From: Pirellulales bacterium
Lineage (GTDB): Bacteria > Planctomycetota > Planctomycetia > Pirellulales > JAEUIK01
DNA length: 64,000 nt
NCBI GenBank assembly: GCA_019694455.1
Contig: JAIBBY010000019.1
Coordinates: 16,501-80,500 of the forward strand
Direction: 5' to 3'
A program made the position numbers and the translations under genes. This document shows, piece after piece, positions 5,495-59,075 of this stretch. Positions within the stretch are counted from its first letter, which is position 1. Each line of letters begins with the position of its first letter. Under the pieces are notes generated by a model. That model searched no databases. It saw only the letters and a list, made by a program, of their open reading frames with translations, and was not told where the DNA came from.

Positions 5495-5512
5495 CTTTCC
5501 GAAACCAAGAGC

Positions 5513-7486: not shown

Positions 7487-7509
7487 CGATCTATTCCAAC
7501 GAGGCAGTC

Positions 7510-11532: not shown

Positions 11533-12564
11533 GTGAGATCAAGGATGATCACGCTGGCGCGCACGAGTATTGTTGCGATGTGTTTGGCGATCGCTCTATC
11601 GTGGGGCACGCCTTCGCTGGGATTCGACCCCACAGCAGGTGGCTGCACACGAGTGCGCCAGCAGCGAGCGCAGGCCTGCGCACAGGGACTAAACAGCGAT
11701 GCCGGTCTGTGCGGCAAGATCGTGCTTGATTGTCCGCGGCAAAGCGACTGTGAAGCGACGGCCTGCGAGCAAGGGGAAACTGCTTGCGAGTCGGCAGCCG
11801 CGATCCATTGCGCTCAATCCGTGGCAAGCGGCTGCACCGCGCTCTCGGCCAAGCACTGCAACGCCGGAGCTTGCACCGCCGCCATTAAGTGCGACTGCGA
11901 GTCGGAGACGACCTATGCGAACCCTGGCGAACTAGCCGACGCGTGCGCCGCGGCTACGAAGCACGAGTGCAAAACCAACGCAGAGCAGGCGGCGCAGACC
12001 GACGGTTTAGGCGCCGCCTGTGCCACTAAGCAGCACCCATGCGACTCCGTGTGCGAATCGGGAAAAACGCGCTGCGCTTCACAAGCCTGCGCCGCGCGTC
12101 AGGCGGAAGCGGCCTGCGAGCCGCAGAGTCAGGCGGCGCGCGACATCATGCGCTTGATGGACTCGCTACAAGCACATGGCGGCGAGGGGATTCATTGCCC
12201 AGGGCTAACCGTTGACGAAACGGTGACCGAGCAGCGCGAAGTAAACGCGCGGCGCGCCCAATTGATTCAAGTACTCGAGAATCTGAGCGAAGCCGATCGG
12301 CCCGAGAGCGAGACGTTGCCCGTGGAGTTGGAAGAACTGGCGCCAGGCGAAGAGGTGACGGAAGAAGTTGAATACACAGACACGGCGCCGGCGGTTCAAA
12401 CCGAGGCGCTGCGCTATTCGAGCGCGAGTCTGGAGCACACCGCCGCTGAACTGGAAGCGGCCGAATTGTATGAAGACGCTGACCTGGTGCGCGAAATCGC
12501 TGGGCAGATGCGACACAAGGCGCGGCGCGTGGCGGGACGGCAACTGCGCCGGTCGACGTACTAA
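11533..12564 (+). CDS. hypothetical secreted Cys-rich protein with acidic C-terminal half
   Basis: Signal-like N-terminus ITLARTSIVAMCLAIALSWG, with more than 25 Cys in the first ~200 aa followed by a Glu/Asp-rich tail. GC3 is coding-like. The start may be the GTG at 11533 or the ATG at 11545. No family recognised. Confidence 0.5.
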   Translation: MRSRMITLARTSIVAMCLAIALSWGTPSLGFDPTAGGCTRVRQQRAQACAQGLNSDAGLCGKIVLDCPRQSDCEATACEQGETACESAAAIHCAQSVASGCTALSAKHCNAGACTAAIKCDCESETTYANPGELADACAAATKHECKTNAEQAAQTDGLGAACATKQHPCDSVCESGKTRCASQACAARQAEAACEPQSQAARDIMRLMDSLQAHGGEGIHCPGLTVDETVTEQREVNARRAQLIQVLENLSEADRPESETLPVELEELAPGEEVTEEVEYTDTAPAVQTEALRYSSASLEHTAAELEAAELYEDADLVREIAGQMRHKARRVAGRQLRRSTY

Positions 12565-12587
12565 GCGACCTTCCAGGCTGACTTCAT

Positions 12588-12617
12588 GCTGACTGGCCGC
12601 TGCGGCGGCCGGTCAGC
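12588..12617 (+). terminator. GC-rich hairpin 23 nt after the stop of the Cys-rich protein gene
   Basis: gctgactggccg / cggccggtcagc form a 12-bp stem with one mismatch and a 6-nt loop. The downstream T tract is weak. Confidence 0.35.
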
Positions 12618-12637
12618 AAATCTTCTTGGCGCTCCGC

Positions 12638-12665
12638 AAACCATGGCGATCGCCATGGTTTTGCG
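12638..12665 (+). terminator. 24-bp perfect palindrome followed by a T run (candidate rho-independent terminator)
   Basis: AAACCATGGCGATCGCCATGGTTT (12638-12661) is perfectly self-complementary and is followed by TTGCGCTTATTT. Confidence 0.45.
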
Positions 12666-13155
12666 CTTATTTAACAGCAGCCAGTCGCGATGGCGGGAAT
12701 CGCCGTCCGGCTCTCACAGCCAACGCCCCCATTCGCCGCCCTGACCCCCTCCAACAAGGGGGAAGCCGTCTGTTCTGGCCGGCGCAATCGCGCCAACAGG
12801 ACCGCCATCATTGGGGGTTGGCCGCGTGACGCCGCGGCGAATTGACACCCCCAACAAGCGGCGGTAGTCTGAGAAACTGTGCTACCATCGGGAGTTATGC
12901 GCTTGCAGGCGCCCGACTGGCGGCGCCCCAACTGTCGAAAGCTTGAATCGGATTCATTCGACCGGCTGCGCGAGTGCAGGCGGTAGGCGATGATGCTGTT
13001 CAGGTTTGCGCTCGCCGACCGGGAGAGAAGAGGCCCTCACCTGGAAGACGCGGTTAGACAGTTGGCTTGTCGTTTTTATCTATTCGTCGATAACCGCAGT
13101 TTCTTGATTCCCAGGCATTATCTGGGTTGTTGTCCGTTGAATTGAGACGCGCGCA

Positions 13156-14862
13156 ATGGCCACCAGCATGACGAATTTCACTGACATCCTCATTCGTCAA
13201 AAGGTTATCAGCGCCGACCAACTGGCCGAAGCCGAACAGATGGCGCGCTCGAGCCGTTCCAGCGTCGGCGACGCGCTGGTGCGTCTCGGCTACGCCACCG
13301 GCGACGAAGTGATGCGCGCCATGGCGCGGTCCCACGGTCTCGACTTCGTGAACCTGTCGGAGGTGGTGATCCCCCCATCGGTGGTCGAACTGGTGCCTGA
13401 GTCAATCGCCCGCGAGAACGCGGTGCTGCCGATGGCGGAGGAGGATGGCGCGATCAAGGTGATCGTCAGCGATCCGCTGGATTACGACACCCAAGAGAAG
13501 CTGCGGTTCATACTGAATCGCGAGGTCAAGATCGCGCTCGCCCCGCGCGAGAACATTCTGGAAGCGATCAACCGCTACTACGGGCAGACTGACGGCGAAA
13601 GCGCCGACTCCATGCTGCAGGAGTTCACCGATACGGCGATCGACTTCACCGAGACGGAAACTCAGGCCGCTGGCGACGACGATTCGGACGAGAGCGCCGC
13701 GCCGATCGTGCGGTTGGTGAATTTGATTATCCAAGAGGCGGTGCAACTCCGCGCCTCGGACATTCACATCGAGCCGTTCGAAGACCGGGTGCGGGTGCGG
13801 TACCGCATCGACGGCGTGCTAGTCGAACGCGACAGCCCACCGCGCCGCTTGCTCGCCGCCATGCTGTCGCGCCTCAAAATCATGGCCAAGATGGACATCG
13901 CCGAGCGCCGCCGTCCACAGGACGGTCGCATCAAGGTGAGCACCGCCAACAAAGAACTCGACCTGCGGGTGAGCGTGCTGCCGACCAATCACGGCCAATC
14001 GGTGGTGATGCGGCTATTGGACAAGGACAGCATCAAGGTCAGCCTCAAACAACTCGGCATGGCGGAAGACGTCTTCCGCACCTTCCAGGGACTGATTCGC
14101 CGTCCCAATGGCATCATCTTGGTGACCGGTCCCACCGGTTCGGGCAAGACGACCACGCTGTACGCCGGCCTGAACGACTTGAATCGGCCCGATCGCAAGA
14201 TCATCACCGCCGAAGACCCCGTGGAGTACTACCTGCCGGGCATCAACCAGGTGGAGGTGAAGCACAACATCGGGCTCGACTTTGCCCGCATTATTCGCTC
14301 GATGTTGCGGCAGGCGCCCAATGTGATTCTGGTGGGCGAGATGCGCGATCAAGAAACGGCCGAGATGGGCATTCAGGCCTCGCTCACGGGCCACTTGGTG
14401 TTCAGCACACTGCATACCAACGACGCGCCGGGCGCTGTCACCCGATTGATCGACATGGGCGTGCCTCCGTACCTGGTGGCGTCCAGCGTCATCGCCATCG
14501 TGGCGCAGCGACTGGTGCGCGTGATCTGCACCAAATGCAAACAGCCATTTACTCCCAGCGACGCGCAGCTCGAGGCCGCGGGCATTCCGCCCGAACTGGC
14601 CGCCAAAGGCAACTTCATGCGCGGAAAAGGGTGCGGCAACTGCCAAAAGAGCGGATATCGCGGCCGCATGGGCATCTATGAGTTGATGATGATGAACTCA
14701 AAGGTCCGCGAGCTCTCATTCCAGCGCGCGTCGACACAAGAGATTCGCAAGGCCGCCGTGGCGCAAGGCATGCGGGGGTTGTATCAAGACGGCATCATCA
14801 AGGTCCTCAAGGGGCTGACCACGCTCGACGAGGTCTTCCGGGTCGCCAAGCGGGGCGACTGA
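13156..14862 (+). CDS. GspE/PilB-family type IV filament assembly ATPase (copy 1)
   Basis: T2SSE N-terminal domain, Walker A GPTGSGKTTT, Asp box/Walker B ILVGEMRD, His box FSTLHTNDA, and tetracysteine CTKC...CGNC. Confidence 0.92.
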   Translation: MATSMTNFTDILIRQKVISADQLAEAEQMARSSRSSVGDALVRLGYATGDEVMRAMARSHGLDFVNLSEVVIPPSVVELVPESIARENAVLPMAEEDGAIKVIVSDPLDYDTQEKLRFILNREVKIALAPRENILEAINRYYGQTDGESADSMLQEFTDTAIDFTETETQAAGDDDSDESAAPIVRLVNLIIQEAVQLRASDIHIEPFEDRVRVRYRIDGVLVERDSPPRRLLAAMLSRLKIMAKMDIAERRRPQDGRIKVSTANKELDLRVSVLPTNHGQSVVMRLLDKDSIKVSLKQLGMAEDVFRTFQGLIRRPNGIILVTGPTGSGKTTTLYAGLNDLNRPDRKIITAEDPVEYYLPGINQVEVKHNIGLDFARIIRSMLRQAPNVILVGEMRDQETAEMGIQASLTGHLVFSTLHTNDAPGAVTRLIDMGVPPYLVASSVIAIVAQRLVRVICTKCKQPFTPSDAQLEAAGIPPELAAKGNFMRGKGCGNCQKSGYRGRMGIYELMMMNSKVRELSFQRASTQEIRKAAVAQGMRGLYQDGIIKVLKGLTTLDEVFRVAKRGD

Positions 14863-14912: not shown

Positions 14913-16052
14913 GTGGGTACGCTGCTCATCGACAAGCTGCTGCAGACCGTCATCAACCAGAAGGCGAGCGATCTGCATATTTCCTGCGGACAACCGCCGT
15001 GTATTCGCCTGGATGGGCGGATGCGGCGTTTGGAAACCAAGACGCTGGAGCCCGACGACACGGTGGCGCTGATGAAGAGCATCACGCCGGAGCGGTGTCA
15101 GCAGGAATTGCAGGAGGTGGGAGGGACCGACTTTGGCTTCGCGTTTGGCGAGCAGGCGCGGTTTCGGGTGGCGGTCTTCAAACAAAAGGGGACCGTCGGC
15201 CTGGTGCTACGGCGGATTCCCAACGAGTTTATGACCTTTGAGCAGCTTGGCCTGCCGAAGGTGTGCGCCGAACTCATCATGCGGCCGCGCGGCTTGTTCC
15301 TGGTGACGGGGCCAACCGGCTCGGGCAAGAGCACCAGCTTGGCCAGCATGATCAATCACATCAATCACAGCGTCGACCATCACATCATCACGATCGAGGA
15401 CCCGATCGAATTCTATCACAAGCACCAGCGTTCCACGGTGAACCAACGCGAGATCGGCGTCGACGTGCCAAGCTTTCCAGAAGCGATACGCCGCGCGCTG
15501 CGTATGGATCCCGATGTGATTCTGGTGGGCGAAATGCGCGATCTGGAAACGATTGAGGCCGCCATCACCGCGGCCGAAACGGGGCACGTGGTCTTTGGCA
15601 CGCTGCACACCACCGGCGCGGAAGGAACGGTGAACCGCATCATCGACGTCTTCCCCACTACGCAGCAAGAACAGATCCGCGTGCAGCTTTCGACTTCGAT
15701 CATTGGCGTGTTGTCGCAGCAATTGCTGCCAAAGATCGGCGGCGGTCGCGTCGCCGCGCACGAGATGCTGGTGGTCACGCCCGGCATCGCCAACCTGATT
15801 CGCGAGAACAAGACGTTTCGCATCACGTCGTCGATTCAAACGGGCGCCAAGTACGGCATGCAGCTCATGGACGACACGCTGTTCAGACTCTGGAAGAACG
15901 GCACCTGCGCCAAGGAAGACGTGATGGTCAAATCGAACAAGCCCGACGAGTTGGCGATGCGGATTGCCAAGGCGGAGGGGGGCATGTTCGACGACGAGCA
16001 GGATTTGCAGGAGAAAAAAGGGGACGGCAAGGCGCCGGCCAAGGGACATTAA
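14913..16052 (+). CDS. pilT: PilT-family retraction ATPase
   Basis: 379 aa with no N-terminal T2SSE_N domain. Walker A GPTGSGKST, ILVGEMRD, FGTLHTT, and the PilT-specific AIxNLIRE-type motif GIANLIRENK. GTG start. Confidence 0.9.
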   Translation: MGTLLIDKLLQTVINQKASDLHISCGQPPCIRLDGRMRRLETKTLEPDDTVALMKSITPERCQQELQEVGGTDFGFAFGEQARFRVAVFKQKGTVGLVLRRIPNEFMTFEQLGLPKVCAELIMRPRGLFLVTGPTGSGKSTSLASMINHINHSVDHHIITIEDPIEFYHKHQRSTVNQREIGVDVPSFPEAIRRALRMDPDVILVGEMRDLETIEAAITAAETGHVVFGTLHTTGAEGTVNRIIDVFPTTQQEQIRVQLSTSIIGVLSQQLLPKIGGGRVAAHEMLVVTPGIANLIRENKTFRITSSIQTGAKYGMQLMDDTLFRLWKNGTCAKEDVMVKSNKPDELAMRIAKAEGGMFDDEQDLQEKKGDGKAPAKGH

Positions 16053-16109: not shown

Positions 16110-17828
16110 ATGGCGATGCGACGGCTTGGCCAGATTCTCGTCGATCTGGGCTTCATCACCGATGAACAGCTTGAAATGCTGCTGGAGGAGCAGCAAAACC
16201 GCCCCGGCGAACTGATCGGCAAGGTGGCCGAGAGCATGGGGCTGATCAACGACGATCAGTTGGCGCAGGGGCTGGCCGAGCAGATGGGGCTGAAGGTGAT
16301 CAGCCTGGCGGACACGGCCATTCCGCAGGACGTGCTCAACTACGTCACCGAGCCGATGGCGCAGCTTTATCGCATTGTGCCGGTCGCCTTCCGCGACAAC
16401 ACCTTGACGATCGCCATGTGCGATCCGCAAAAGCTGTCGGTCGTCGACGAGCTGCGCAATTTCCTGGGCTACGACATCCGCACCGTGGTCGCCACGGAGA
16501 AGGACGTCAAGGGCGCGCTGGAGCGATACTACGCCGCCGAGGGAGAGAGCGTCGAGAAGATCGTCCACGACATGGAGGAGGACAAAGAGCTCAACGCCGC
16601 CGCCGCCGCGCTCGACAAGGACGGGCCGATCGACCTGACCAGCGTCGAGGCGCTGGCCGACAGCGCACCGGTCCGCAAGCTGCTCAACATGGTGCTCTTG
16701 ATGGCCATCAAGGACCATGCCAGCGACTTGCACTTTGAGCCATTCGAAGACGAATTCAAGATTCGCATCAAGGCCGACGGCGTGCTCTTTGAGATGGTGC
16801 CGCCGCCGCGCCACCTGGCCTTCGCCATCACCACGCGCATCAAGGTGATGGCCAACCTCGACATCGCCGAACGCCGGTTGCCGCAAGACGGCCGCATTGA
16901 GCTGAACGTGGGCGGCCACCCGGTCGATCTGCGGGTGAGCGTGCTGCCGACCATGTTCGGCGAGAGCGTGGTCATGCGGGTGCTCGACCGCTCGGTGGTC
17001 AACCTCGATCTGGCTGCGGTCGGCATGAACGCCAGCACGCTACAAGCGTTTCGCGAGGTGATCGAACACCCCAACGGCATCGTGCTGGTGACCGGCCCCA
17101 CTGGGTCGGGCAAGACCACCACCCTGTATTCGGCCCTGTCCGAGCTGAACTCGGTGGACGACAAGATCATCACCACCGAGGATCCCATCGAGTACGACAT
17201 CGACGGCATCGTGCAGTGCCCCATCGACCACTCGATCGGCAACACTTTCGCGGCTTGTTTGCGGGCCATTTTGCGGCAAGATCCAGATATTATTCTGGTG
17301 GGGGAGATTCGCGACCTGGAGACGGCCGAGATCGCCGTCCAAGCCTCGCTGACGGGTCACATGGTCTTTAGCACGCTGCACACCAACGACGCCCCCAGCA
17401 CGATCACGCGCTTGCGCGACATGGGGGTGGAACCGTTTATGATCACCGCCACCGTGGAGGCGATACTTGCCCAGCGGCTGGTGCGCAAGATCTGCTCCGG
17501 CTGCCGAGAGGAGATCAAGCCCACCCAAGACATGCTGGCCGAACTGCAATTGGCCGCCGGCGATGTGGCAGGGAGGCAATTCTTTCGCGGCAAAGGTTGC
17601 GACGTTTGCAACAACACGGGTTATAAAGGACGCATCGGCCTGTTCGAGTTGATGGTGATGAACAACGACCTGCGCGAGATGATCGTACGCAATTGCACCA
17701 GCGACGAGTTGCGCGTGGCCGCGCGGCGCTACGGCATGGTGACCTTGCGCGACGCCGGCATGGATTACGTGTATCAAGGCAAAACGACGCTGGAAGAAGT
17801 CGTCCGCGAAACGATTGTAGACGGGTAA
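16110..17828 (+). CDS. GspE/PilB-family assembly ATPase (copy 2) with MshEN-type N-terminus
   Basis: Walker A GPTGSGKTTT, ILVGEIRD, FSTLHTNDA and CSGC...CDVC. The N-terminus RLGQILVDLGFITDEQLEMLLEEQ matches the 24-residue MshEN c-di-GMP-binding motif. Confidence 0.92.
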   Translation: MAMRRLGQILVDLGFITDEQLEMLLEEQQNRPGELIGKVAESMGLINDDQLAQGLAEQMGLKVISLADTAIPQDVLNYVTEPMAQLYRIVPVAFRDNTLTIAMCDPQKLSVVDELRNFLGYDIRTVVATEKDVKGALERYYAAEGESVEKIVHDMEEDKELNAAAAALDKDGPIDLTSVEALADSAPVRKLLNMVLLMAIKDHASDLHFEPFEDEFKIRIKADGVLFEMVPPPRHLAFAITTRIKVMANLDIAERRLPQDGRIELNVGGHPVDLRVSVLPTMFGESVVMRVLDRSVVNLDLAAVGMNASTLQAFREVIEHPNGIVLVTGPTGSGKTTTLYSALSELNSVDDKIITTEDPIEYDIDGIVQCPIDHSIGNTFAACLRAILRQDPDIILVGEIRDLETAEIAVQASLTGHMVFSTLHTNDAPSTITRLRDMGVEPFMITATVEAILAQRLVRKICSGCREEIKPTQDMLAELQLAAGDVAGRQFFRGKGCDVCNNTGYKGRIGLFELMVMNNDLREMIVRNCTSDELRVAARRYGMVTLRDAGMDYVYQGKTTLEEVVRETIVDG

Positions 17829-17923: not shown

Positions 17924-19255
17924 ATGCCGACGTACCAATTCGAAGCGATGGACGCCACCGGCGCCGAGATCAAGGACGAGATCGACGCCGTCAGCGAGGA
18001 AGAAGCGCAGGCGACAATTCGCCAGATGGGCTACTTCGTCACGAAGCTGTCCGTCAAGAAAGCGCGCAAGTCGGCCGCCGAAAAGAAAAAGAAAGGTAAA
18101 GGGGGCAAGACCTTCGCCATTGGCGGCGTGAGCACCAAGCTGCTCACCACGTTCACGCGCCAACTCTCCATTTTGCAGGACGCCGGTCTGCCGATCTTGC
18201 GCAGCCTGAGAATCCTGGAAGGACAATCGAAGCCGGGCCGGCTGAAAAACTCGCTGATCGACGTCTGCGACGAGATCGAGGCGGGCGCCACGCTCTCGGA
18301 GGCGATGTCCAAGAGCCCCAAATGCTTCGACCGCCTGTACGTGAACATGATCAAAGCGGGCGAGGCGGGCGGCGCCTTGGAAGTCATCTTGCGCCGCCTG
18401 GCCGAGTTCCAAGAAAAAGCCCAGGCCCTCAAGCGCAAAGTCAAGGGGGCGATGGTCTACCCGGTTGTCGTCGTCATGATCGCCACCGTTATTCTGGTGG
18501 CGATCATGAAGTTCATTGTGCCGAAGTTCAAACAGATCTTCGACGACTTCGACAGCGAGCTGCCCGCGATGACCGAGTGGCTCATCTGGGTGTCCGACAT
18601 CGTCATCAATTACTTCTTCCTGCTGCCCTTGATTCCCGTGGGCATCTGGTTGTTCGTCAAGCTCGTGCGCAAGTTCGAGTATGGCCGCTACGGCTGGGAC
18701 TTGTTCACGCTCAAGGTGCCGGTGTTCGGCCAATTGATCGAAAAGAACATCATGGCTCGCACCAGCCGCACACTCGGCACGCTGGTGGCGTCGGGCGTGC
18801 CGATCTTGGAGGCCTTGTTCATCGCCAAGGAGACCAGCGGCAACGCCGTGTTCGAAAACCTATACGGCAAGATTTACGACGCGATTCGCGAGGGAGAATC
18901 GATTGCCCGGCCGATGAAGGAAAACTCCAAGCCCGGCTTCCATCCGGTGTCGGCCTTCTTCTGGTTCGCCTTTGTGGGGGGGCCGATTGGGCTATTGATG
19001 TACATGCTGCGGCTCAACGACCGCATCGTCGACGATCTGGTGATCAACATGATCGACGTGGGGGAAGAGACGGGCGAGCTCGACACCATGCTCTATAAAG
19101 TGGCCGATACCTACGACGAAGAGGTGGCGGTGCTCACCGAAAGCCTCGTGAGCCTGCTGGAACCGCTGTTGATCGTGGTGCTCGGCGGCATGGTCGGCTT
19201 CATCGTGATCGCCCTGTTCTTGCCGCTCATCAAGCTGATCGGCGACCTGAGCTAA
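17924..19255 (+). CDS. GspF/PilC-family inner-membrane platform protein
   Basis: MPTYQFEAMDATGAEIKDEIDA N-terminus, a duplicated T2SSF-type domain, three TM segments, and a GGAGGAG RBS upstream. Confidence 0.92.
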   Translation: MPTYQFEAMDATGAEIKDEIDAVSEEEAQATIRQMGYFVTKLSVKKARKSAAEKKKKGKGGKTFAIGGVSTKLLTTFTRQLSILQDAGLPILRSLRILEGQSKPGRLKNSLIDVCDEIEAGATLSEAMSKSPKCFDRLYVNMIKAGEAGGALEVILRRLAEFQEKAQALKRKVKGAMVYPVVVVMIATVILVAIMKFIVPKFKQIFDDFDSELPAMTEWLIWVSDIVINYFFLLPLIPVGIWLFVKLVRKFEYGRYGWDLFTLKVPVFGQLIEKNIMARTSRTLGTLVASGVPILEALFIAKETSGNAVFENLYGKIYDAIREGESIARPMKENSKPGFHPVSAFFWFAFVGGPIGLLMYMLRLNDRIVDDLVINMIDVGEETGELDTMLYKVADTYDEEVAVLTESLVSLLEPLLIVVLGGMVGFIVIALFLPLIKLIGDLS

Positions 19256-19545
19256 GAGAGGTATTTTTCCGCTTGGCGACGACCGCCCCGGCAGGCTGGC
19301 GATGCGTAGGAAATTGGTCTCGGGCGCGCGGAGCAATTCGTTCGCCTGCGAATCAACCAGCAGCCAGATTGCGTTTGCTAGCAGCTCTGGCCCACAACTT
19401 GCAACTTATTGTCCCTAGCCAGTTTTCGCTCGGTTTTGCGTATACAATCGCAACAGGCGGCGCGAGGCCGCTGTACGATTTTGCGCCACGTCTCATTGCG
19501 AGACGCGAACAGGCCGCCCGAGAACCCGCGAGAAAGCACCAAGAT

Positions 19546-20718
19546 ATGACACGAAGTCGAGAAAACTACCGTTCTCCGCTGTATGCCGCTGGCTCCGATG
19601 CAGGGGCCGCTGGCCTTGCTTCTTCACCTCGTGCCCGCTGCCGCCGGCCCCTACATGGTTTCACGCTCGTCGAACTGCTGATGGTGATCGTCATCATCGG
19701 CGTCTTGGCCGGGCTGCTTTTGTTCGCCGTGGGCGGCGGCACGAAGAAGGCTAAGAACGCGGCGGTGCTCAGCGAGATCGAGCAGATTCAATCCGCGATC
19801 GAGTCCTACCGCACCGAACGGGGCAGCTACCCGCCCACCCTCGGCATTTTCGTCGGCGACCAAAAGCTCTCGCCGGCGCCGATGGGGAGCATGGTCCCGC
19901 AGGTGCAGCAGCAGCGCATTACGCGGCACATCGCCAAGGCGTTTCCACGTTACATCGCCAACTACAACGACATGCGACTGCACATCTCCGACGCCACGAA
20001 GTTCGTCTCCGTGTCGAACAACGCGGCCAAGTACATGGGTAATGCCGGAAACGGGCTTGATCTCGAGAATCTCGATCCGGCGGAGGCGCTCGTGTTTTTC
20101 CTTGGGGGGCTGCCGAACTCCAACGCCGAGACCAAACTGGCGCCGTTTCGCTTGGACCCGGCCAATCCTTTTTTTGGCACGGGCGCTTCGGCCGCCGATC
20201 CGTATCCGGGTCAGCGCGGCAAGGTGTTCTTTCCGTTCGATGCGCGGCGACTGGTCGATTATGACGGCGATGGCTGGTGGGAGTACTTGCCGCCGGGTGG
20301 AACGCAGGAAGGCAACACGCCGCCGTATGTCTACTTCGACAGCAACATCTATAAATCGGGCCCGGCCTATCCGTATCCGTCGCAGGCGGCCGGTGTGTTA
20401 AGCGTCAGCGCGCCGGGCTTTCAAGGCCCCAACAATGAGTCACTGTGGGGCAACAGCATCCCGTACGCGGCCGATCCGGCGCCGACCGGTACGCAGCCGC
20501 TGAAGTTCATGAACTCGCAAAAATTCCAGATCATCGCCCCTGGCATCGACACCAAATACCACAAGCAATTGTTGGCCAGCGACGTTTTGTCTGGTGGCAC
20601 GCCGTGGTGGTTCGCTGCGGATTTCTTCCCATCGACCGCATCGGCACAGGTCGATGACCAGGACAACCTGACCAATTTCGCCGGGGGCACGTTGGCCGAT
20701 TCGGCGCCCACTCCATGA
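19546..20718 (+). CDS. GspG-like major pseudopilin/pilin with large C-terminal extension (390 aa)
   Basis: Prepilin site HG|[20 protein letters not shown] with Glu+5. GspG-like helix [30 protein letters not shown], a DYDGDG loop, and C-terminal IIAPGID...DDQDNLTNF resembling the GspG SxGxDG...DDITNW end. The nearest in-frame start upstream of the site is the ATG at 19546, giving a 38-aa leader. The track ORF start at 19273 is rejected. Confidence 0.8.
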
Positions 20719-21845
20719 CACATCGCACGCTCGCACAACACGGACGCCGCACGATGCAGCAGGAGGGCCGATTCGCTCTCCTGTTTGCGTCTGGCGGCTA
20801 CGCGCGGCGAGATGGTCGGCGTGGCTTCACGCTGATCGAGCTTTTGGTCGTGATCACGATCATCGCCATTCTGGCGGGCATGGCGCTGGGCGCGTTGTAC
20901 CAGGCGCAAGAGGCCGCTCGGCTGTCGCGCACGCGTTCGCTGATCACCAAGTTGAACGCCGCCATGCAAGAACGCTGGGAGAGCTATCGCACCCGGCGCT
21001 TGCCGGTCGACCTGAACCAGACCAGCGGCGACGGACGCCAGTTCGCGCTGTGCCAACTGTTGGCGCGGCGGCAACTGATGCGGATGGAACTGCCCGACCG
21101 CTGGAGCGACATCAATATCACGGCGCTTTCTCCCACGCAAGACAAGGCGTTCGGCACCGACACGTCGACTGGGCGCACGGAGCGCAGTGATTGGGCAACC
21201 GCGCTGGGCTTGCCGAAGACCGAGTTTCAAACAATCGGCATACCGCTCGCCACGCCGATCAACGTGCCCTACTCGGCGCTCTTTTACGCCTACCAGCGAC
21301 GGCTAGCGCAGATCGGCAGTCCCACGCCCGCGTATCAAGGCGCCGAGTGCTTGTACCTGATCCTGACCACGGGCATGGGGGACGAGTCGGCCACCGACAT
21401 GGCGATATCGCCGCGCGACGTGGGAGACTTTGACAACGACGGCGCCAAGGAATTCATCGACGGCTGGGGGCGCCCCATCTCGTTTCTGCGCTGGGCGCCT
21501 GGCTTCCTCTCCGACTTGCAGCCCGGCAATCCCACCGCCACCAATCCGTTCGACGCGCGCGACTTGCGGGCAAATCACGATCCATTCGATCCGGCGGGCA
21601 TCGACCCGCTGGCGTTTGAAATGCATCCGCTGATTTTCTCGGCCGGTTCGGACGGCGTATACCGCATCGCCACGGTCGAGAACTCGCCGAACAAGACGCC
21701 GGATCAAAACGATCCATACGCTCCCACCGATCCCGGCGCCAGTCAGTTGAGTTGGCGCGGCCAGGTGACGGCCCTCCAGCCCGAGGATGGCGACGGCGGA
21801 CCAGAGGACAACATCCACAACCACTTGCTCGACATCAGGCGTTAA
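20715..21845 (+). CDS. prepilin-type pseudopilin, GspG-fold-like (376 aa)
   Basis: RRG|[41 protein letters not shown] (compare the GspG DxDxDG / DPWGxPY region), and IFSAGSDG...DNIHNH. Its ATGA overlaps the stop of the upstream gene. Confidence 0.8.
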
Positions 21846-21846
21846 C

Positions 21847-22968
21847 GTGCGGAAGTTGTTTCCACATTTCGAGATCACCGGCGCTTTGTGCAGCAACCGC
21901 GGCGCCGGTCGGCGCGGCGGCTTCACGCTGGTCGAGCTATTGGTGGTGATACTGATCGTCGGCATCCTGGCGGGCATCGCGCTGCCAGTGATCTTGCCGA
22001 CGCTCGACACGCGACGGCTGCGCGAGGCGTCGCGCACGGTGACCAGTTATCTGAACGGGGCCCGCGACACGGCAATGCGCAACGGCCGTCCGGTGGGGGT
22101 GATGTTCGAGCGGTTCAGCGTGACCGACGACGGCGGCACGACGCGGCAGCAGCCGAAGATGTCGATCGTGCTGCGGCAGGTGGAAGTGCCGCCCCCCTAC
22201 GCGGGAGACACGATTGCGTCGCGGGCGTTGATCGGCGGCGGTCAAATAGTTGGGCTCGGCGGCGTGACTCTGAATATGGGCGTGCTGACTGTGACCGGCC
22301 CAGACTACGGGGTGACGCGGCTGGTCAAGCCCGGCGATCTGATACGGTTCAATTATCAGGGGGCCTATTTTCAGATCGCCAGCGGCACGGCGGACACCAT
22401 CGACAATCGTTACCTCAAACCGCCGACGCCAACAGAACCTTGGACGATTTCGTCGCTCGGCGTGATCCCCGTGCATATCCAGGCGGCGACGGTGGCCGCT
22501 CCGATTGCCCTGCCGTATCAGATCATCCGCCAGCCGGTGAAGTCGGCCAACCCCGCGATGCAACTGCCGGAGTCGCTGGTGATCGACATGGAGTATTCGG
22601 GCGTGGGCGGAACTGGCTCTGAGTTTTCCAGTCTCAATGGCAATGCGCCGGTGGTGGTGATGTTCGCGCCGGACGGCACGGCATCGCACATTTACTACAA
22701 CTACATGCGAGCCTCGGTCGGCAGCGCGATTCACCTGTTGCTCGGCAAGCGCGAGCGGTTGGACAACACCTGGGCCGCGAGTCAGACAGGCGACGATATG
22801 TCGAACCTGCAAGACCTGGAGAATTTTTGGATCTCGATCCAACCGCAGAGTGGGCTGATCACGTCGAGCAATGTGGGCGCGATCAACGCCGCGACGACTC
22901 AGCCGGCCGACGCGCTCAAGCAGTCGCGAGTGTTCGCCGAATCGGCCCAAGCATTGGGAGGCAGGTGA
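21847..22968 (+). CDS. GspH/FimT-like minor pseudopilin (about 373 aa)
   Basis: GG|FTLVELLVVILIVGILAGIALP, followed by RRLREASRTVTSYLNGARDTAMRNGRPVGV, which is the GspH/FimT-type helix pattern. Start assigned to the GTG at 21847, 1 nt after the upstream stop. In-frame TTG alternatives lie downstream, and the ORF track starts at 21787, overlapping the previous gene. Confidence 0.7.
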   Translation: MRKLFPHFEITGALCSNRGAGRRGGFTLVELLVVILIVGILAGIALPVILPTLDTRRLREASRTVTSYLNGARDTAMRNGRPVGVMFERFSVTDDGGTTRQQPKMSIVLRQVEVPPPYAGDTIASRALIGGGQIVGLGGVTLNMGVLTVTGPDYGVTRLVKPGDLIRFNYQGAYFQIASGTADTIDNRYLKPPTPTEPWTISSLGVIPVHIQAATVAAPIALPYQIIRQPVKSANPAMQLPESLVIDMEYSGVGGTGSEFSSLNGNAPVVVMFAPDGTASHIYYNYMRASVGSAIHLLLGKRERLDNTWAASQTGDDMSNLQDLENFWISIQPQSGLITSSNVGAINAATTQPADALKQSRVFAESAQALGGR

Positions 22969-24335
22969 TGCGCGGTATTCTTCCCCTCATCCGGCCTGCG
23001 GCCCGCACTGGCAAAGCCGGTGGCACACGGGAAAATACGCCCCCTCACCCGGCCTGCGGCCGGTCTCTCCCCCTGCTGCGCGGGGGCGAGGCGAAAAAAC
23101 ACACTGGCCCGGCCACTGGCCTGCAAAGGCGCACGCCGCGCGGCATCACGCTGATGGAGGTGCTGATCTCGATCTTCGTCGCTTCGGTCGGGCTGATGGG
23201 ACTGGCAGCGCTGATCCCCGTCGGGCGGCATTATGTGGTCGAGGCGAGCAAGCAGGAACGCGGCAACGCGGTGGGCCGGGCGGCGTTTCGCGAGATCAAA
23301 GTCCGTGGCTGGCTCAAGCCTGAGAATCTTTGGGGCTCGGGAGGAGCGGTGACAGGCGCCGACCTGACCAAGCCATTTTGCATCGACCCCTTGTTCGTCG
23401 CGTACCCGGCCAATAGCGCGGCGGGCGGCGCGATGACGATCATGCCAGGTACGCTGCCTTGGAACGATGGCACTGGCTGGTTGTTCCCGACCAAACTAAC
23501 CAACGAGTTGGGCGCGGGCGTGACCGCCACGGCGCGCATGCCACGCGCGACTTTGAAGGGTTGGAGCGGCGCCACCATTCCCATGACCAATCCATCGGTG
23601 GAGCGGATGTTCCGCTCGGAAGATGATCTGGTGTTTGAGCAACCCAGCGACGAGACGAAGCGGCCCAACGTGGTGTGGGGTTCGGACGACCGGATCCAGT
23701 CGGCCGGCGACTACACCTGGCTGGCGACGGTGGTCCCGTCGCCGTGGCCCTACCCGGTCACGCCCGCGCCGATCGCGGCGCCCAAGGCGTTCAGCGTGTC
23801 GGTGGCGGTGTGCTACAAGCGCTCGCCGTTGGCGCCGCTGCCGGCAATCGCCAATCGGGGAGACGGCCCGCCGAGCGAACGCGTGCTGTATGCCGACTTC
23901 ATCTCGGGGGGCGTCGGCTATGGCGGCGGCGACGTGCTGTTGCGACTGCCGATCAAATCGGGCGATCCGAACAGCGACCCGGCCAACGTGGAGAAGAGCG
24001 ATTTTCCCAAGGTGCGGCCAGGACAATGGATCATGCTGGGCGGCTGGACGCAGCCGGCGGCGCCGATTCAGCCGCACGAGGTCTATCATTGGTATCGCGT
24101 GGTGGCGACGGGGGGCGACCCCAGCTATGCCGATAGCGGCACGAACCCGGCCAGCGCCTCGGGCAACCCGGAGTGGTACCTCGAAGCGACGCTCGCCGGC
24201 CCCGACTGGGCGGCCGACTCGACGATGTATCAAGACGCCGACGGGGCAGGCGGCTTGACGCTCTATGCCACGGTGATCGATGGCGTGGTGGGGGTTTACA
24301 CCAAGACGATCGAGGTCGATAGCTGGGCTCAGTGA
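22968..24335 (+). CDS. PilV/GspI-like minor pseudopilin (455 aa)
   Basis: RG|ITLMEVLISIFVASVGLMGLAALIP is the PilV/GspI-type N-terminus. Its ATG overlaps the upstream TGA (gTGATG). The apparent 59-aa leader contains the GC-rich repeats. A CTG at 23121 would give an 8-aa leader, (M)QRRTPRG. Confidence 0.7.
   Translation: MRGILPLIRPAARTGKAGGTRENTPPHPACGRSLPLLRGGEAKKHTGPATGLQRRTPRGITLMEVLISIFVASVGLMGLAALIPVGRHYVVEASKQERGNAVGRAAFREIKVRGWLKPENLWGSGGAVTGADLTKPFCIDPLFVAYPANSAAGGAMTIMPGTLPWNDGTGWLFPTKLTNELGAGVTATARMPRATLKGWSGATIPMTNPSVERMFRSEDDLVFEQPSDETKRPNVVWGSDDRIQSAGDYTWLATVVPSPWPYPVTPAPIAAPKAFSVSVAVCYKRSPLAPLPAIANRGDGPPSERVLYADFISGGVGYGGGDVLLRLPIKSGDPNSDPANVEKSDFPKVRPGQWIMLGGWTQPAAPIQPHEVYHWYRVVATGGDPSYADSGTNPASASGNPEWYLEATLAGPDWAADSTMYQDADGAGGLTLYATVIDGVVGVYTKTIEVDSWAQ
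22983..23090. repeat. GC-rich palindromic repeat element (family 1) inside the 5' end of the PilV-like gene
   Basis: 21-mer CCCCTCATCCGGCCTGCGGCC at 22983-23003. A one-mismatch copy at 23041-23061 is followed by an imperfect hairpin ctctccccc-N8-gggggcgag. Confidence 0.8.
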
Positions 24336-27300
24336 TGGGTCCGGCCAAGTTCACAATACAGGAAACGGGGCAACCGCAGGGGCTCTGCGGCGGAGTGAGT
24401 GAGATGGCGGCGAACGAATTGAATCGACAACTCGAGAATAACGGCTCCAAGCCGGGCTACCCCCTCATCCGGCCTGCGGCCCGCGCTACCGGGGCCAGCA
24501 GCACACGGTTCGAAGCTGGCGAGCAGTGGATCAGTGGAGCAGCTGAGCAAGTCCCCCTCATCCGGCCTGCGGCCACCTTCTCCCCGCAAGCGGGGCGAAG
24601 GCCGAAATACACCAGTCTCGCCGCGGCCACTGCTACGATCCGCAATGGTGCACGGGGGACTAAGCGGCGGGGCATCATACTGCTGTTTATCCTGGGGCTT
24701 TTGGCGCTTTTTTCGCTGGTCACGGTCACGTTTGTGGTCGTCGCACGTACGCACAAGCGGGGCGCGGCGATTCACGCGCAGATCGAACGCACCGGGGACT
24801 CGCCCGAGCAGCTTACCAAGACCGCTTTGTTGCAGGTGCTGCGCGGCACGAACAACGCCGCCTCCACCTTGCGCGCGCACAGCCTGCTGGAAGACATGTA
24901 CGGCAGCGACGGACTGGTGGGCAAGATGGTCGATCCGTCCACGCTGCCAGCGGATCAGTTCAATAAGCAATTCATTCCTTTGGGGACGCTGGCCAGCGAT
25001 GTGACGTTTCCAACGCTGCAATGGGCCCCCGCGCCCCTGCTGAGTCAGGTGGCCAGTTACTACACCGGGCGCGTGCTGACGATGATCGAGGGGCCGTGCG
25101 CCGGCGAGAGCGTGCGGATCGTGGATTACACCTATGCGAGCGGGACCGGCGTGTTTTGGGTGATGCCGTTCAAGCAGGGGCGCCCGCTCCAAGGCAACCG
25201 CTTCGTCGTCAACGGGGCGCCGTTCAACGGGACGGGCTTTGGCTTCAACCTGCAAACGTATCAGAACAACCCCGCGCTGCCGCTGTTGAATTTTCCGAAC
25301 GCGGTGACTGGCGTGCAGGCCTTCGCGCCCAATCATCAGACGTTTATTCCCTCCATGCCGGGCTATCCCGATCCGGCTGGCCTGGGCGGAGCCGATGAAG
25401 ATTATGACGCGGCCGACTATCAAAACCTGCTCTTGGCGCTGCGGGCCATCACCAGCAACACCAGCAGCCCTTACTATCCCAGCCAGGTGGTATTGCCGTC
25501 GCTGCACCGGCCCGACCTGGTGAGCTTTGTGCTGGCCAATCAGAACACACCGATTCCCTGGACCAATTGGAACACGGCCGCGGCGACGATTCCGCTGCGC
25601 AGCGTCATGCTGCGGCCCGTGGGCGGATTCGTTGGCGCCGATCATCCGAACTTCAGTGGCAGCAATCCCAGCTTCCATCCCGTGACGGGGCCGTGGGACA
25701 TCGACAACGACAACGACGGCAAGCCCGACAGCGTCTGGGTCGATCTGGGCCTGCCGGTGCAGACCACACCCGATGGCCGCACCTACAAGCCGCTGTTCGC
25801 CATCTTGTGCGAAGACCTGGATGGCCGCCTGAACCTCAACGCGCACGGCAACGCCAACCAATTGGTGATGCCAACCAGCGTGGAAGCGGGGGCCGGCGTC
25901 GCCGCCACCGGCACGACCAAGGCGCAAGCCCCGACCGCCGGCAGCGACTCGGCGGGGGGGACTGTCGCCAAGTTGCCGGTCGGCCAGGGGTATGGTCCCG
26001 CCGAGGTCAACCTGGGCATCTTCTTCAACCAAACGACTAACAACACGGTTTCATTTGACGAGTTCGACAACCTGCTGTTCGGCGTCAAGACGGGGGGCGT
26101 GTTCACCGACTCGGTGATTAGCGTGACCTTTGGCCTGCCAACGGCTCTCCCATCGCTGACCAACGAACTGCTACTGGGGCGCTACGGCGAACTTGACGTG
26201 CCGCTGAGCGAGGCGCCGGCGGCGGGGCGCACCGACGAGGGCGCCAACGGCATCGATCCGACCATGGATATGTCTGCGTGGTGGAAGATGTCCGACTTTG
26301 CCGCGTACAACTCCAAGATCGGCACGCCATCGAACTACGGCACACGGTCTGACCTGGACGGCGACGGCGTGCTGGCGGTCGATCCGTCGGGCAATCTGGT
26401 GTTCCCGAATTTCGCGCAGAACGAATCGACCGGCATGCACGGCATGGGCGAGCGCTGGGAGACGCGCAATAGCGCTTACGACCTGGACCTGTCGCGAAAC
26501 GCCCCACGCACCGGCCTGCCGAACAGCAAGATTCCGTACACCATCGACGCGCCGTTTCAGCCGACCGAGCTGGAGCGGATTTTGCGCTACAACGATCTCG
26601 ACGCGCCGAGCCTGCCCGACCGATTGCTGCGCCTGGCGCCATTCATGTTCACGGGCCGATCGTCGATGGGGAGCGACCTGCCGGGCAACGCCGAGTATCG
26701 CCGCCGATTGGTGACAACCGAAAGCTGGGACTTGCCGATTCCGTCGCTCGGCCCTTCGGCCGATGTGCTGGCCCCAGGGGCGTATTTGAATCAAACCTTG
26801 TACGCCAGCGCCGCGCCGGCGAGCGCCACCCTGCTCGACCGGATCGCGACGATCACGCCGACGAGCGTGAACCGCGCGATCGTGTTGAACCATCTGGGGG
26901 GCGAGTTGTCGCGGGGGCTCCAGTTCGACATTAACCGCCCGTTTGGCGACGGCATCGACAACGACGGCGATTGGCTGGTGGACGAGCCCGACGAAGCCAC
27001 TGAGTACGCCTGGCCGCAGTACTACGGAAGCACAGTGCAATTCAAACACAACACTTCCCTGGGCGGCACGACCCTCGACCGGGAGCAATACGCCCGCAGC
27101 CTGTACATGTTGGTGATGATGCTGATGGACCAGCAGTTTGTCGATCGGGAGTATCCGGCGAGCAACCCCGCCAAGCGGATGCGACTGGCGACGCAGGTGG
27201 CGCAGTGGGCGGTGAACGTGACCGACTTCCGCGACAGCGATTCGATCATGACCGGCTTCGAGTTCGACGCGGCGCCGTTCACGGATGAGAACAGCGACGG

Positions 27301-42755: not shown

Positions 42756-44375
<1,620 letters not shown>

Positions 44376-44432
44376 GTTTGCGGCTCCTTACAGGTTCGCT
44401 ATTTGGTTATGCGTGGGTCGCAGCCGATTCGA

Positions 44433-44738
44433 CTAGCTGACGACCTTGGCCAGAATGTCGGACTCGCGGAGGATCTTGACGTCGCGGCCACTGACTTCGA
44501 TGTCGGTGCCCGAGTACTTGCCAAAGATCACCTCGTCTCCCACCGCAACAGACAACGCTCCGCGGTCACCGCTATCGAGCACCTTGCCGGGACCTGTCGC
44601 CAGGACCATGCCACGCTGGGGACGCTCTTTGGCCGAGTCGGGCAGCACGATGCCGCCGGCGGTCATCTCTTCAGCTTCGAGCGGTTCGACAACGACGCGG
44701 TCGTCCAGGGGGCGGATATTGATGTTGTTTTTGGCCAT
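44433..44738 (-). CDS. groES: co-chaperonin GroES
   Basis: [38 protein letters not shown]. Start at the ATG at 44738; the ORF track starts at 44771. Confidence 0.95.
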
Positions 44739-44821
44739 CGATGATTTGTCCTTCTGTCTGTTTATCTGCAAGTGAATTCAATAGTCGCATGTATCAAACG
44801 GCTGCTTGAAACCAGGGGCGA

Positions 44822-46516
<1,695 letters not shown>

Positions 46517-59002: not shown

Positions 59003-59075
59003 TGCCCCCTGATGGACTCGAACCATCAACCCTCTGATTAAGAGTCAGATGCTCTGCCAATTGAGCTAAGGGGGC
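59003..59075 (-). tRNA. tRNA-Lys (anticodon CUU)
   Basis: Hand-folded cloverleaf. Acceptor GCCCCCT/AGGGGGC, D arm GCTC-AATTGGCA-GAGC, anticodon arm TCTGA-CTCTTAA-TCAGA, T arm GATGG-TTCGAGT-CCATC, discriminator A. No encoded CCA. 73 nt. Confidence 0.93.

Follow-up and report, generated by a model that had tools for sequence, protein, structure and literature searches.

With regard to pilus motors that bind c-di-GMP directly, MshE from V. cholerae (VcMshE) is among the closest described systems. In this pilus extension ATPase, the N-terminal MshEN domain (PDB 5HTL; Wang et al. 2016, PMC5013675) carries two tandem 24-residue motifs on a four-helix bundle, to which an alpha/beta subdomain is joined on the C-terminal side. 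In T. thermophilus PilF, three tandem GSPII domains reside in one polypeptide, two of which bind the second messenger while one does not (Neissner et al. 2024, PMC11731258). Motif II of the binding domain GSPII-B (PDB 8PDK) begins with Leu (L196) and for this reason the consensus at the motif start was extended to (R/K/L)LG; Leu at this position goes along with higher affinity, and exchange of the terminal Gln residues for Glu (Q190E/Q218E) abolishes binding (PMC11731258). PilB-type ATPases with a c-di-GMP-binding MshEN N-domain are furthermore described for C. perfringens (PilB2), M. xanthus and C. thermophilum. A further PilB paralogue (PilB1) is present in C. perfringens, where surface display of PilA2 is reported to depend on PilB2 and PilC2, i.e., a platform of its own. 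The same fold with loss of key residues is found in the PilB N-domain of X. citri and P. aeruginosa (PDB 7LKM; PMC8389850) as well as in XpsE from X. campestris (2D27/2D28). These proteins serve as models for copy 1 described below. P. aeruginosa PilB and XpsE do not bind c-di-GMP directly, and c-di-GMP nevertheless controls the PilB proteins with degenerate N-domains in X. citri and P. aeruginosa indirectly via PilZ-FimX. For A. baylyi, two extension ATPases, PilB and TfpB, have been proposed to act on one type IV pilus machine that has a single platform and PilT as the opposing motor (PMC11656802); the accessible part of this review does not describe a difference between PilB and TfpB in the c-di-GMP motif.

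Little is known about c-di-GMP effectors in the Planctomycetota. Isosphaera pallida is among the organisms with MshEN as the sole recognised c-di-GMP protein receptor, and RB12774 from R. baltica is listed among the MshEN_N domains (Supplementary Fig. 3c / Table 3 in Wang et al. 2016, PMC5013675). In that study RB12774 was catalogued only, and neither its motif-less paralogue nor the conserved operon was discussed. In the literature we found neither experimental work on planctomycete pilus motors nor c-di-GMP binding data for any planctomycete protein or for an MshEN unit with a six-residue spacer.

The 64-kb stretch of DNA analysed here (the window) stems from a member of the Pirellulales (Planctomycetota) and contains a conserved type IV pilus-like operon with the order copy 1, pilT, copy 2, pilC, pilin-like genes and a giant open reading frame. 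Copy 1 (13156..14862, 568 aa, catalytic motifs intact) and copy 2 (16110..17828, 572 aa) are PilB-like assembly ATPases, of which copy 2 is the motif-bearing paralogue. A PilT-family retraction ATPase (14913..16052, 379 aa) is encoded between them; these and all features mentioned below lie on the forward strand. RB12774 is orthologous to copy 2 and shares its motifs (RRIGQILVDLGFLTDDQL...GALFGKVAEDMQLVTDQQLIQALAEQ), and a Rhodopirellula locus (L079) exhibits the same copy1-pilT-copy2 order. While the non-binding PilB and EpsE of V. cholerae belong to separate machines, the motif-less paralogue resides here in the same operon as the motif-bearing one; compared with PilF, the two versions are distributed over two paralogous ATPases, and in contrast to C. 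perfringens a single PilC lies beside both of them. Neither the type of receptor nor its motif is new, and pairs of paralogues of which one binds and another does not are already known as well; what is gained is a well-supported prediction together with a comparative data set rather than a new mechanism or principle. If copy 2 binds c-di-GMP, it would concretely link the level of the second messenger to the assembly of pili in a phylum with a life cycle that alternates between attached and swimming cells.

The predicted c-di-GMP site in the two ATPases

Between the stop codon of pilT (16050-16052) and the ATG at 16110 no upstream start codon is present, so that just four residues precede the motif in copy 2, whose N-terminus translates as M1-A-M-R-R5-L-G. 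Residues 5-28 (16122..16193) read RLGQILVDLGFITDEQLEMLLEEQ and, as stated in the earlier note, fit the MshEN motif: all 11 constrained positions agree with RLGxx(L/V/I)(L/V/I)xxG(L/V/I/F)(L/V/I)xxxxLxxxLxxQ. The Phe at motif position 11, which had been taken as an exception, is none, since the V. cholerae motif of Wang et al. allows (I/F) and motif II of VcMshE has F48. VcMshE has the same six key residues in its motif I, and the strict motif occurs a single time in the six-frame translation of the window, compared with 8e-7 occurrences expected by chance. Motif I is followed by the spacer QNRPGE (residues 29-34, 16194..16211), which would form the loop between helices 2 and 3, and by motif II (residues 35-58, 16212..16283; LIGKVAESMGLINDDQLAQGLAEQ) with the key residues L35, I36, G37, L51, L55 and Q58. 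The spacer and a second, only partly conserved motif copy had been reported before; the second copy is indeed present, but its initial Leu, which corresponds to L196 of PilF GSPII-B and to Arg in VcMshE, lies within (R/K/L)LG. The real departures from the published unit are the spacer, with six residues as opposed to five in VcMshE, and A40-E41 at core positions 6-7 of motif II, where VcMshE has L-I and known binders have L/V/I. Five of the six key residues of motif II fit the extended consensus of 2024, the sixth being Ile in place of Leu at position 2, and judged by this consensus every ligand-contact position appears to be kept (G, G, L, L and Q, position 1 being occupied by L). The alpha/beta (N1) subdomain follows at residues 60-146 (16287..16547; Pfam PF05157, with AF2-predicted strands and helices across 73-145) and the ATPase domain at residues 183-566 (16656..17807; Pfam T2SSE), which contains Walker A (GPTGSGKT), Walker B (ILVGEIRD), the His box and CxxC...CxxC.

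The corresponding region of copy 1, a protein 41% identical to copy 2, looks different. In residues 7-30 (13174..13245; NFTDILIRQKVISADQLAEAEQMA) one of the six key residues is found (N-F-T...L...E...A); in agreement with the earlier note, Arg, both Gly and the terminal Gln are missing, and Glu stands where the second contact Leu is expected. The second degenerate motif, residues 36-59 (13261..13332; SVGDALVRLGYATGDEVMRAMARS), has kept the fold core and lost the contact residues, S-V-G...V...M...S occupying the key positions. With reference to VcMshE, copy 1 bears substitutions at positions where the effect of exchanges is known, i.e., Thr at Gly11, Glu at L29 and Ala at Q32; in VcMshE binding is lost upon the exchange G11L and also upon G40I, which correspond to G7 and G37 of copy 2. 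Copy 1 nevertheless stays in the fold family (83.7 bits for PF05157; phmmer to 5HTL, E 4.6e-12). As its contact residues are lost, it should not bind c-di-GMP directly.

An alignment of both N-termini to the MshEN profile, as had been proposed, gives an answer that depends on the profile. Pfam PF05157 ("MshEN") was rejected as a discriminator: it matches residues 60-146 in both copies, off the binding helices, leaves the motif uncovered and therefore cannot separate copy 1 from copy 2. NCBIfam NF053729 (c-di-GMP_motif), a 53-position model covering the motif, does separate them. Residues 5-58 of copy 2 align to profile positions 1-53 of 53 with 45.8 bits and thus exceed the curated cut-off of 38 bits, an annotation threshold rather than a calibrated line between binders and non-binders, whereas copy 1 stays below it with 31.1 bits.

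For the N-domain of copy 2, AF2 predicts (pLDDT 86.5) helices at residues 2-12, 18-30, 36-42 and 48-59 and a loop at 31-35, and the model together with Foldseek points to the four-helix bundle plus alpha/beta subdomain. It superimposes on V. cholerae MshE with c-di-GMP (5HTL) with TM 0.80-0.87, rmsd 1.8-1.9 Å and 34-35% identity and on c-di-GMP-bound PilF GSPII-B with TM 0.75-0.82. The non-binders 9G1W, 2D28 and 7LKM match about equally well, and the fold therefore has no power to discriminate between binders and non-binders.

Conservation across the clade and predicted binding

A strict motif regex proved too narrow as an orthologue classifier, matching four of 80 copy-2 orthologues, because most members of the clade have RIG instead of RLG. 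The comparison was therefore based on per-column counts and the NCBIfam profile. Among the 80 orthologues of copy 2, motif I is characterized by R/K in 76, G(3) in 78, G(10) in 80, L(17) in 76, L/V/I(21) in 78 and Q(24) in 75 sequences. In motif II, G(3), L/I/V(17) and Q(24) are found in all 80 and L(21) in 78, while position 1 is occupied by L (63), K (8), M (6) or R (2). E41 is the commonest residue at its position (48/80), and the spacer has six residues in 75 of 80 sequences (orthologues plus the copy in the window) in which a spacer could be recognised; in the published alignment, too, RB12774 and other members have insertions at the spacer. Apparent matches of 2.5 kb in copy-2 orthologues, considered as a possible intein or insertion, turned out to be the neighboring PilT match merged with the copy-2 match.

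In the 60 orthologues of copy 1, position 1 is never Arg, position 3 is T in 30 and G in nine cases, and position 24 is A, S or G and never Q. Contact positions are the most conserved class in copy 2 (entropy 0.60 bits) and the least conserved one in copy 1 (1.94 bits), whereas the fold core is about equally conserved in both (0.98 vs. 1.02 bits). When 72-aa fragments were compared with NF053729, 75 of 81 copy-2 and three of 61 copy-1 sequences matched at E<=3e-11, and 81 of 81 and 18 of 61, respectively, at the more lenient E<=1e-9. The proposed divergence of the two paralogues at the c-di-GMP site is borne out in that copy 2 passes and copy 1 fails the curated profile and the pattern is conserved in the clade; this divergence is clade-wide rather than a quirk of one genome.

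Copy 1 has probably lost the site, whereas copy 2 is probably a direct c-di-GMP receptor, as predicted from its sequence. Its first 58 residues would fold into a complete MshEN_N four-helix bundle, in which the two half-sites together accommodate a single c-di-GMP molecule in extended form. If the contacts are those of VcMshE, the backbone amides of G7-Q8 and G37-K38 would contact the guanine edges, L6/L51/L55 and I36/L21/L25 would form the Leu/Ile triangles, R5 and L35 would stack on the bases, and Q28 and Q58 would reach ribose and phosphate. Direct binding is predicted at sub-micromolar to low-micromolar affinity. With regard to the mutants suggested in the earlier note, changes equivalent to R5A and Q28A shift the affinity of VcMshE less than fivefold, so that these two would probe the site only weakly. 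Binding would couple pilus extension, or a signalling output of PilB, to cellular c-di-GMP, with precedents in V. cholerae MshE, the PilB proteins of M. xanthus and C. thermophilum, PilB2 of C. perfringens and PilF of T. thermophilus. The activity of copy 2 may be gated by c-di-GMP, while copy 1, a diverged paralogue with the fold retained and an active-looking ATPase, may be independent of it.

Alternatively, the motif of copy 2 could be an inherited relic. PilF GSPII-A with restored consensus still fails to bind c-di-GMP (Neissner et al. 2024, PMC11731258), i.e., a matching motif is not sufficient, and copy 2 has a spacer of unusual length and deviates at two motif II core positions, while its fold matches include non-binders. 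However, with just four residues ahead of R5, copy 2 has no room for the helix extension, stabilised by an N-cap, by which PilF GSPII-A is blocked, and the NF053729 score lies above the cut-off. In addition, the solvent-facing contacts of copy 2 (R/K at I-1, Q at I-24, Q at II-24 and both G-3) surpass the hydrophobic core in conservation, yet drift freely in copy 1 on the same fold, which is hard to explain without selection for a ligand. In view of this, a relic appears unlikely.

A different question is whether both motors respond to c-di-GMP, copy 2 directly and copy 1 via an adaptor docked on its degenerate N-domain in a PilZ-FimX-like manner, in which case the split would be one between direct and indirect sensing and not between sensing and non-sensing. 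Such docking is conceivable, as the PilZ-bound N-domain of X. citri PilB matches the fold (7LKM/7LKO, TM 0.76-0.78), a 2024 PilB review describes PilZ-FimX control of motif-less PilBs, and the bundle core as well as Y46-A47 are strongly conserved in copy-1 orthologues. The X. citri and P. aeruginosa PilBs and XpsE have known partners (PilZ-FimX and XpsL, respectively), but none of these is encoded near copy 1. Pfam searches of 56 of the ORF calls and regex searches in six frames yielded no GGDEF, EAL, HD-GYP or PilZ gene in the 64-kb window, nor does the conserved part of the operon contain a PilZ, FimX or GGDEF/EAL gene; EALxR and PilZ-like regex matches in the window fell into unrelated or non-coding frames. 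The lack of such genes in the window also counts against a c-di-GMP input to copy 2. Judged from the window and the conserved part of the operon, we regard an adaptor for copy 1 as quite improbable and retain loss of direct c-di-GMP binding as the more probable reading. The single representative of the copy-1 lineage in a search of 50%-identity cluster representatives (P0121) is likewise motif-less, and the next relatives (45-52% identity) comprise motif-bearing as well as degenerate PilBs, a mixture that is compatible with secondary loss of the motif, although it does not constitute a phylogeny.

Operon layout, platform and pilin-like genes

Both copies carry the characteristic motifs of the GspE/PilB superfamily, i.e., Walker A, Asp box, Walker B, His box and tetracysteine (GPTGSGKT, EDP(I/V)EY, ILVGE(I/M)RD, LTGH(M/L)VFSTLHTNDA and CxxC...CxxC), and score above 450 bits with Pfam T2SSE (458.6 bits for copy 2, which reaches 72.8 bits with MshEN). 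They remain below the equivalog cut-offs for PilB (TIGR02538, 675.65 bits; copy 2 630.8, copy 1 621.5) and, narrowly, for GspE (TIGR02533, 630.25 bits; copy 1 626.4, copy 2 620.8). Neither is a TfpB orthologue (NF053534, cut-off 850 bits; copy 1 489.9, copy 2 464.8). The closest relatives in the PDB are Geobacter and Myxococcus PilB for copy 2 (about 545 bits) and PilB proteins for copy 1 (about 490 bits), with copy 2 as the more canonical PilB of the pair. Both are nearer to PilB than to GspE structures and are therefore named PilB-like despite their equivalog scores. The protein encoded between them matches Pfam T2SSE and TIGR01420 (pilT_fam) with 450.4 bits, above the cut-off of 319.1. The platform protein of the PilC/GspF family (17924..19255, 443 aa, two Pfam T2SSF repeats) is the sole one in the operon; its top NCBIfam matches are GspF and PilC, each below the equivalog cut-off.

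One PilT and one PilC are thus encoded in the operon, and the order copy1-pilT-copy2-pilC is conserved across 80 related species and kept in 49 complete loci, copy 1 being found in 65 of the 67 loci whose upstream sequence is long enough to hold it. This synteny suggests that both motors may work on the single PilC. Whether they form one pilus machine with two extension motors sharing one platform, c-di-GMP picking the motor that engages or favoring mixed complexes, is doubtful; if so, the locus would be the planctomycete counterpart of A. baylyi PilB/TfpB, with the second-messenger input wired into one motor only and the two genes adjacent in one operon. The conserved combination of a motor with the motif and a motor lacking it, grouped around a single PilT and a single PilC, offers a natural system to address why several extension ATPases exist, a question posed in the 2024 PilB review. 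Alternatively, the two ATPases might serve different machines or outputs, e.g., a pseudopilus resembling that of type II secretion for copy 1 and a retractile pilus for copy 2, or mainly c-di-GMP-dependent signalling by copy 2, as proposed for PilB and exopolysaccharide production in Myxococcus. In favor of this, an extension ATPase as a rule belongs to one particular system, CtPilB and MxPilB have been proposed as regulators of exopolysaccharide, both copies score just below the PilB and GspE cut-offs, PilC matches best to GspF and the pilin-like genes match best to GspG/GspH N-termini. On the other side, there is a single platform gene in an operon of conserved order, both copies are clearly nearer to T4aP PilB than to GspE structures, and PilT sits between them; this alternative is considered highly improbable.

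A terminator-like hairpin with a 14-bp stem (12587..12618) follows an unrelated upstream ORF and probably marks the 5' limit of the pilus operon; the genes upstream of the operon show no synteny in other species. The short gaps between copy 1, pilT, copy 2 and pilC contain no comparable hairpin. A search for a c-di-GMP riboswitch or any other known RNA gave no match across the entire window when gathering thresholds were applied; with E<=1, the region 12500-13300, which includes the gap of about 590 nt upstream of copy 1, was likewise free of matches. The last gene of the module is an ORF of 1836 aa (24332..29842) without Pfam or NCBIfam match, a homologue of which is present downstream in 35 of 35 loci with at least 9 kb of downstream sequence. 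It is preceded by four large pilin/pseudopilin-like genes with prepilin N-methylation motifs and Pfam N_methyl matches (19273..24335; 19273-20718, 20715-21845, 21787-22968 and 22827-24335). NCBIfam assigns IV_pilin_GFxxxE to the first three (19273-22968) and PilV to the fourth (22827-24335), and the real starts of the first and fourth are probably located about 100-125 codons downstream of the called ones.

MshEN motif and profile scores of the two assembly ATPases

Re-translation of the two PilB-like assembly ATPases of the pilus operon, copy 1 (568 aa, 13156-14862, +) and copy 2 (572 aa, 16110-17828, +), returned exactly the residues and coordinates of the earlier note, according to which only copy 2 carries an MshEN motif for c-di-GMP. 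In copy 2, motif I extends from R5 to Q28 (RLGQILVDLGFITDEQLEMLLEEQ, 16122-16193) and is followed by the six-residue spacer QNRPGE and by motif II from L35 to Q58 (LIGKVAESMGLINDDQLAQGLAEQ, 16212-16283); residues 7-30 of copy 1 read NFTDILIRQKVISADQLAEAEQMA. In the six frames of the window, the strict motif is found a single time, compared with 8e-7 occurrences expected by chance. As the copy 2 frame lacks any start codon from the pilT stop to ATG 16110, only four residues precede the motif.

MshEN, the domain at the N-terminus of V. cholerae ATPase MshE, consists of two 24-residue motifs and a five-residue spacer, with six key residues (R, L, G, L, L, Q) per motif. The guanine edge is met by backbone amides of the two glycines, which also permit helix turns, each base is ringed by a triangle of three leucines, and ribose and phosphate are contacted by glutamines (Wang et al., 2016, PMC5013675). 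The phenylalanine at motif position 11, previously listed as an exception, is none because the V. cholerae motif form is written with (I/F) and motif II of MshE contains F48. L35 is also within the consensus since position 1 was widened to R/K/L, the GSPII-B domain of T. thermophilus PilF with K167 and L196 binding 83-fold more tightly than MshEN (Neissner et al., 2024). Copy 2 truly deviates in its six-residue loop and in motif II, where A40-E41 occupy two positions of the bundle core. In MshE numbering, copy 1 exhibits R9N, G11T, G18K, L29E, Q32A, R38S and Q61S, substitutions of the same kinds as in the proven non-binder XpsE, and its N-terminus resembles those of the non-binding PilB proteins from P. 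aeruginosa and V. cholerae. In MshE, G11L and G40I abolished binding and single leucine changes lowered affinity more than 10-fold.

The alignment to an MshEN profile proposed in the earlier note depends on the model chosen. The Pfam MshEN model matches residues 60-146 in both copies and is uninformative here because it covers the C-terminal subdomain only, whereas NF053729 (NCBIfam), which models the binding unit itself over 53 positions and has a cut-off of 38 bits, separates copy 2 (45.8 bits, with residues 5-58 aligned to profile positions 1-53) from copy 1 (31.1 bits, below the cut-off, residues 10-58 to positions 4-52). With 72-aa N-terminal fragments, which score about 5 bits above full-length proteins, NF053729 matched 81/81 copy 2 and 18/61 copy 1 sequences at E<=1e-9, and 75/81 and 3/61, respectively, at E<=3e-11.

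Constraint at ligand-facing positions across related loci

A scan of species-representative genomes yielded 80 loci from Pirellulales, a few of them labelled Planctomycetales or Gemmataceae, with copy 2 orthologues sharing 66-84% identity with the window protein. The order copy1-pilT-copy2-pilC is present in 49 loci, most of the remainder being truncated versions, and copy 1 was found in 65 of the 67 loci with room upstream. In the two others, L070 and L078, pilT-copy2-pilC is present and no copy 1 gene lies within 4.9-9.6 kb upstream, so that at least one sublineage can dispense with copy 1 or carries it elsewhere. Downstream of copy 2, pilC, two or more pilin-like genes and a giant ORF are present in nearly all loci whose sequence extends far enough; genes upstream of the operon are not conserved.

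Per-column counts over 80 copy 2 and 60 copy 1 sequences differ at each half-site. At motif I position 1 (I-1), copy 2 has R (61) or K (15) and copy 1 mostly D (35) and never R; the respective residues are G (78) vs. T (30) or G (9) at I-3, G (80) vs. G (50) at I-10, L/V/I (78) vs. mostly charged or polar residues at I-21, and Q (75) vs. A (45) or S (13), never Q, at I-24. In motif II, position 3 is G (80) vs. G (22), position 21 L (78) vs. L (28) or M (13), and position 24 Q (80) vs. Q (4). Mean column entropy at the 12 ligand-contact positions amounts to 0.60 bits in copy 2 and 1.94 bits in copy 1, and to 0.98 and 1.02 bits, respectively, at ten fold-core positions. Copy 2 is therefore under extra constraint exactly at its ligand-facing residues and copy 1 keeps the fold only, which bears out the suggested divergence of the paralogues at the predicted c-di-GMP site. 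The high variability at the former contact positions of copy 1 likewise speaks against a conserved alternative ligand at this site. The label "textbook" holds for the strict match in window copy 2, which is, however, slightly atypical because the clade consensus is RIG rather than RLG; the strict pattern occurs in only 4/80 orthologues.

A few copy 2 orthologues carry changes in key residues that probably represent secondary losses: I-3 G to E together with I-24 Q to H in L053 and L064 (RRLEQ...EEH), and Q to H in L048 and L051. Key residues are also lost in L016, L074 and L080, RSFGQ being an alternative altered form. L051, L064, L074 and L080 (from a roe-deer colon sample) are labelled Thermoguttaceae, L048 and L053 Planctomycetaceae and L016 Pirellulales. 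These proteins may be natural losses of predicted c-di-GMP binding that could serve as controls.

Predicted fold and proposed role of c-di-GMP

In the AlphaFold2 model (mean pLDDT 86.5), residues 1-152 of copy 2 form helices 2-12, 18-30, 36-42 and 48-59 followed by an alpha/beta subdomain. Foldseek searches of the PDB matched this model to MshE with c-di-GMP (5HTL; TM 0.80-0.87, rmsd 1.8-1.9 Å) and c-di-GMP-bound PilF GSPII-B (TM 0.75-0.82). Since the non-binders PilF GSPII-A and XpsE as well as the X. citri PilB N-domain in its PilZ complex, listed with the non-binders, are also matched, the modeled fold confirms family membership and does not predict binding. GSPII-A does not bind even with restored consensus, owing to an N-cap-stabilized extra turn of helix 1 and inter-subdomain contacts (Neissner et al., 2025). 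Such an N-cap cannot be built in copy 2 because too few residues precede R5; other blocking features are possible.

Beyond the motif, profile match, fold and selective-constraint pattern observed for copy 2, we infer binding, affinity and functional effect. It appears likely that the N-domain of copy 2 binds c-di-GMP, linking it to pilus extension or a PilB signaling output, and that direct binding is absent from copy 1. One extended c-di-GMP would be held between the two half-sites as in MshEN. Its consequences may differ from simple gating: a triple-Leu variant of MshE that fails to bind acted like a constitutively active protein, and c-di-GMP and ADP are mutual allosteric effectors of C. 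thermophilum PilB. By analogy with PilZ-FimX, copy 1 may be under indirect control via an adaptor; c-di-GMP enzymes, PilZ genes and riboswitches were not found within the 64-kb window. The single pilC of the conserved operon suggests that both ATPases may share a platform, for which A. baylyi PilB/TfpB is the closest precedent.

The receptor type is well characterized, with more than 10,000 MshEN proteins and the copy 2 orthologue R. baltica RB12774 printed in a supplementary alignment (Wang et al., PMC5013675), and one binding paralogue among non-binding ones is already known from V. cholerae. Our literature search retrieved no paper that deals with PilB of planctomycetes or with the control of their pili by c-di-GMP. 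New are the clade-wide conservation of the motif-bearing/motif-less pair with its operon and the site-specific constraint pattern.

ATPase relatives and gene content

Walker A and B, Asp box, His box and tetracysteine motif are intact in both copies, which share 41% identity. Both are closer to PilB of Geobacter and Myxococcus (about 545 bits for copy 2, about 490 bits for copy 1) than to GspE (about 420 bits each), which makes copy 2 the more canonical PilB. In NCBIfam, both fall slightly short of the PilB and GspE equivalog cut-offs and far short of that for TfpB. Among 50%-identity representatives, the copy 1 lineage forms one cluster, its representative also lacking the motif, and its next relatives are motif-bearing and degenerate PilBs intermixed, which would fit a secondary loss of the motif in copy 1. 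Many representatives are about 1000 aa long and match the PilB-like query in two stretches (P0122-P0128, P0130, P0133-P0135 and others); they seem to be GspE-family ATPases that are much longer, or are fusions, and whose N-termini are unrelated.

Between the two copies lies a PilT-family ATPase (379 aa, 14913-16052, +) passing its NCBIfam subfamily cut-off. A PilC/GspF platform protein (17924-19255, +) and four large genes that contain prepilin N-methylation motifs (19273-24335, +) follow, the prepilin-like proteins being unusually large (about 340-400 aa). The third matches "Verru_Chthon cassette protein D" below threshold (47 bits, cut-off 70 bits), a hint of a connection with the pilin-like cassettes of Verrucomicrobia, which also belong to the PVC phyla. 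The module ends with a 1836-aa ORF (24332-29842, +) that matches nothing in Pfam or NCBIfam; its product might be an adhesin, a secretin substitute or a tip protein. In 35/35 related loci whose sequence continues for 9 kb or more downstream, a homologue (about 29% identity) is located downstream of copy 2. The gaps between copy 1, pilT, copy 2 and pilC measure 50-95 nt and contain no terminator-like hairpin. A strong terminator-like hairpin (12587-12618) lies at the end of an unrelated upstream gene, and the following ~540 nt up to copy 1 (12619-13155), in which no ORF of at least 100 codons was called and Rfam gave no match up to E<=1, may harbor the operon promoter or leader.

Elsewhere in the window, genes for a carboxyltransferase, a methylcrotonyl-CoA carboxylase-type biotin carboxylase and AtuA lie side by side (3860-9285, +) and resemble a cluster for the catabolism of acyclic terpenes or leucine, with no relation to the pilus operon. 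Two GroEL paralogues (539 and 564 aa) are encoded in tandem (42756-46516, -) with a GroES gene (44433-44771) between them, and a single tRNA gene (59003-59075, -; 73.4 bits) is the sole Rfam match.
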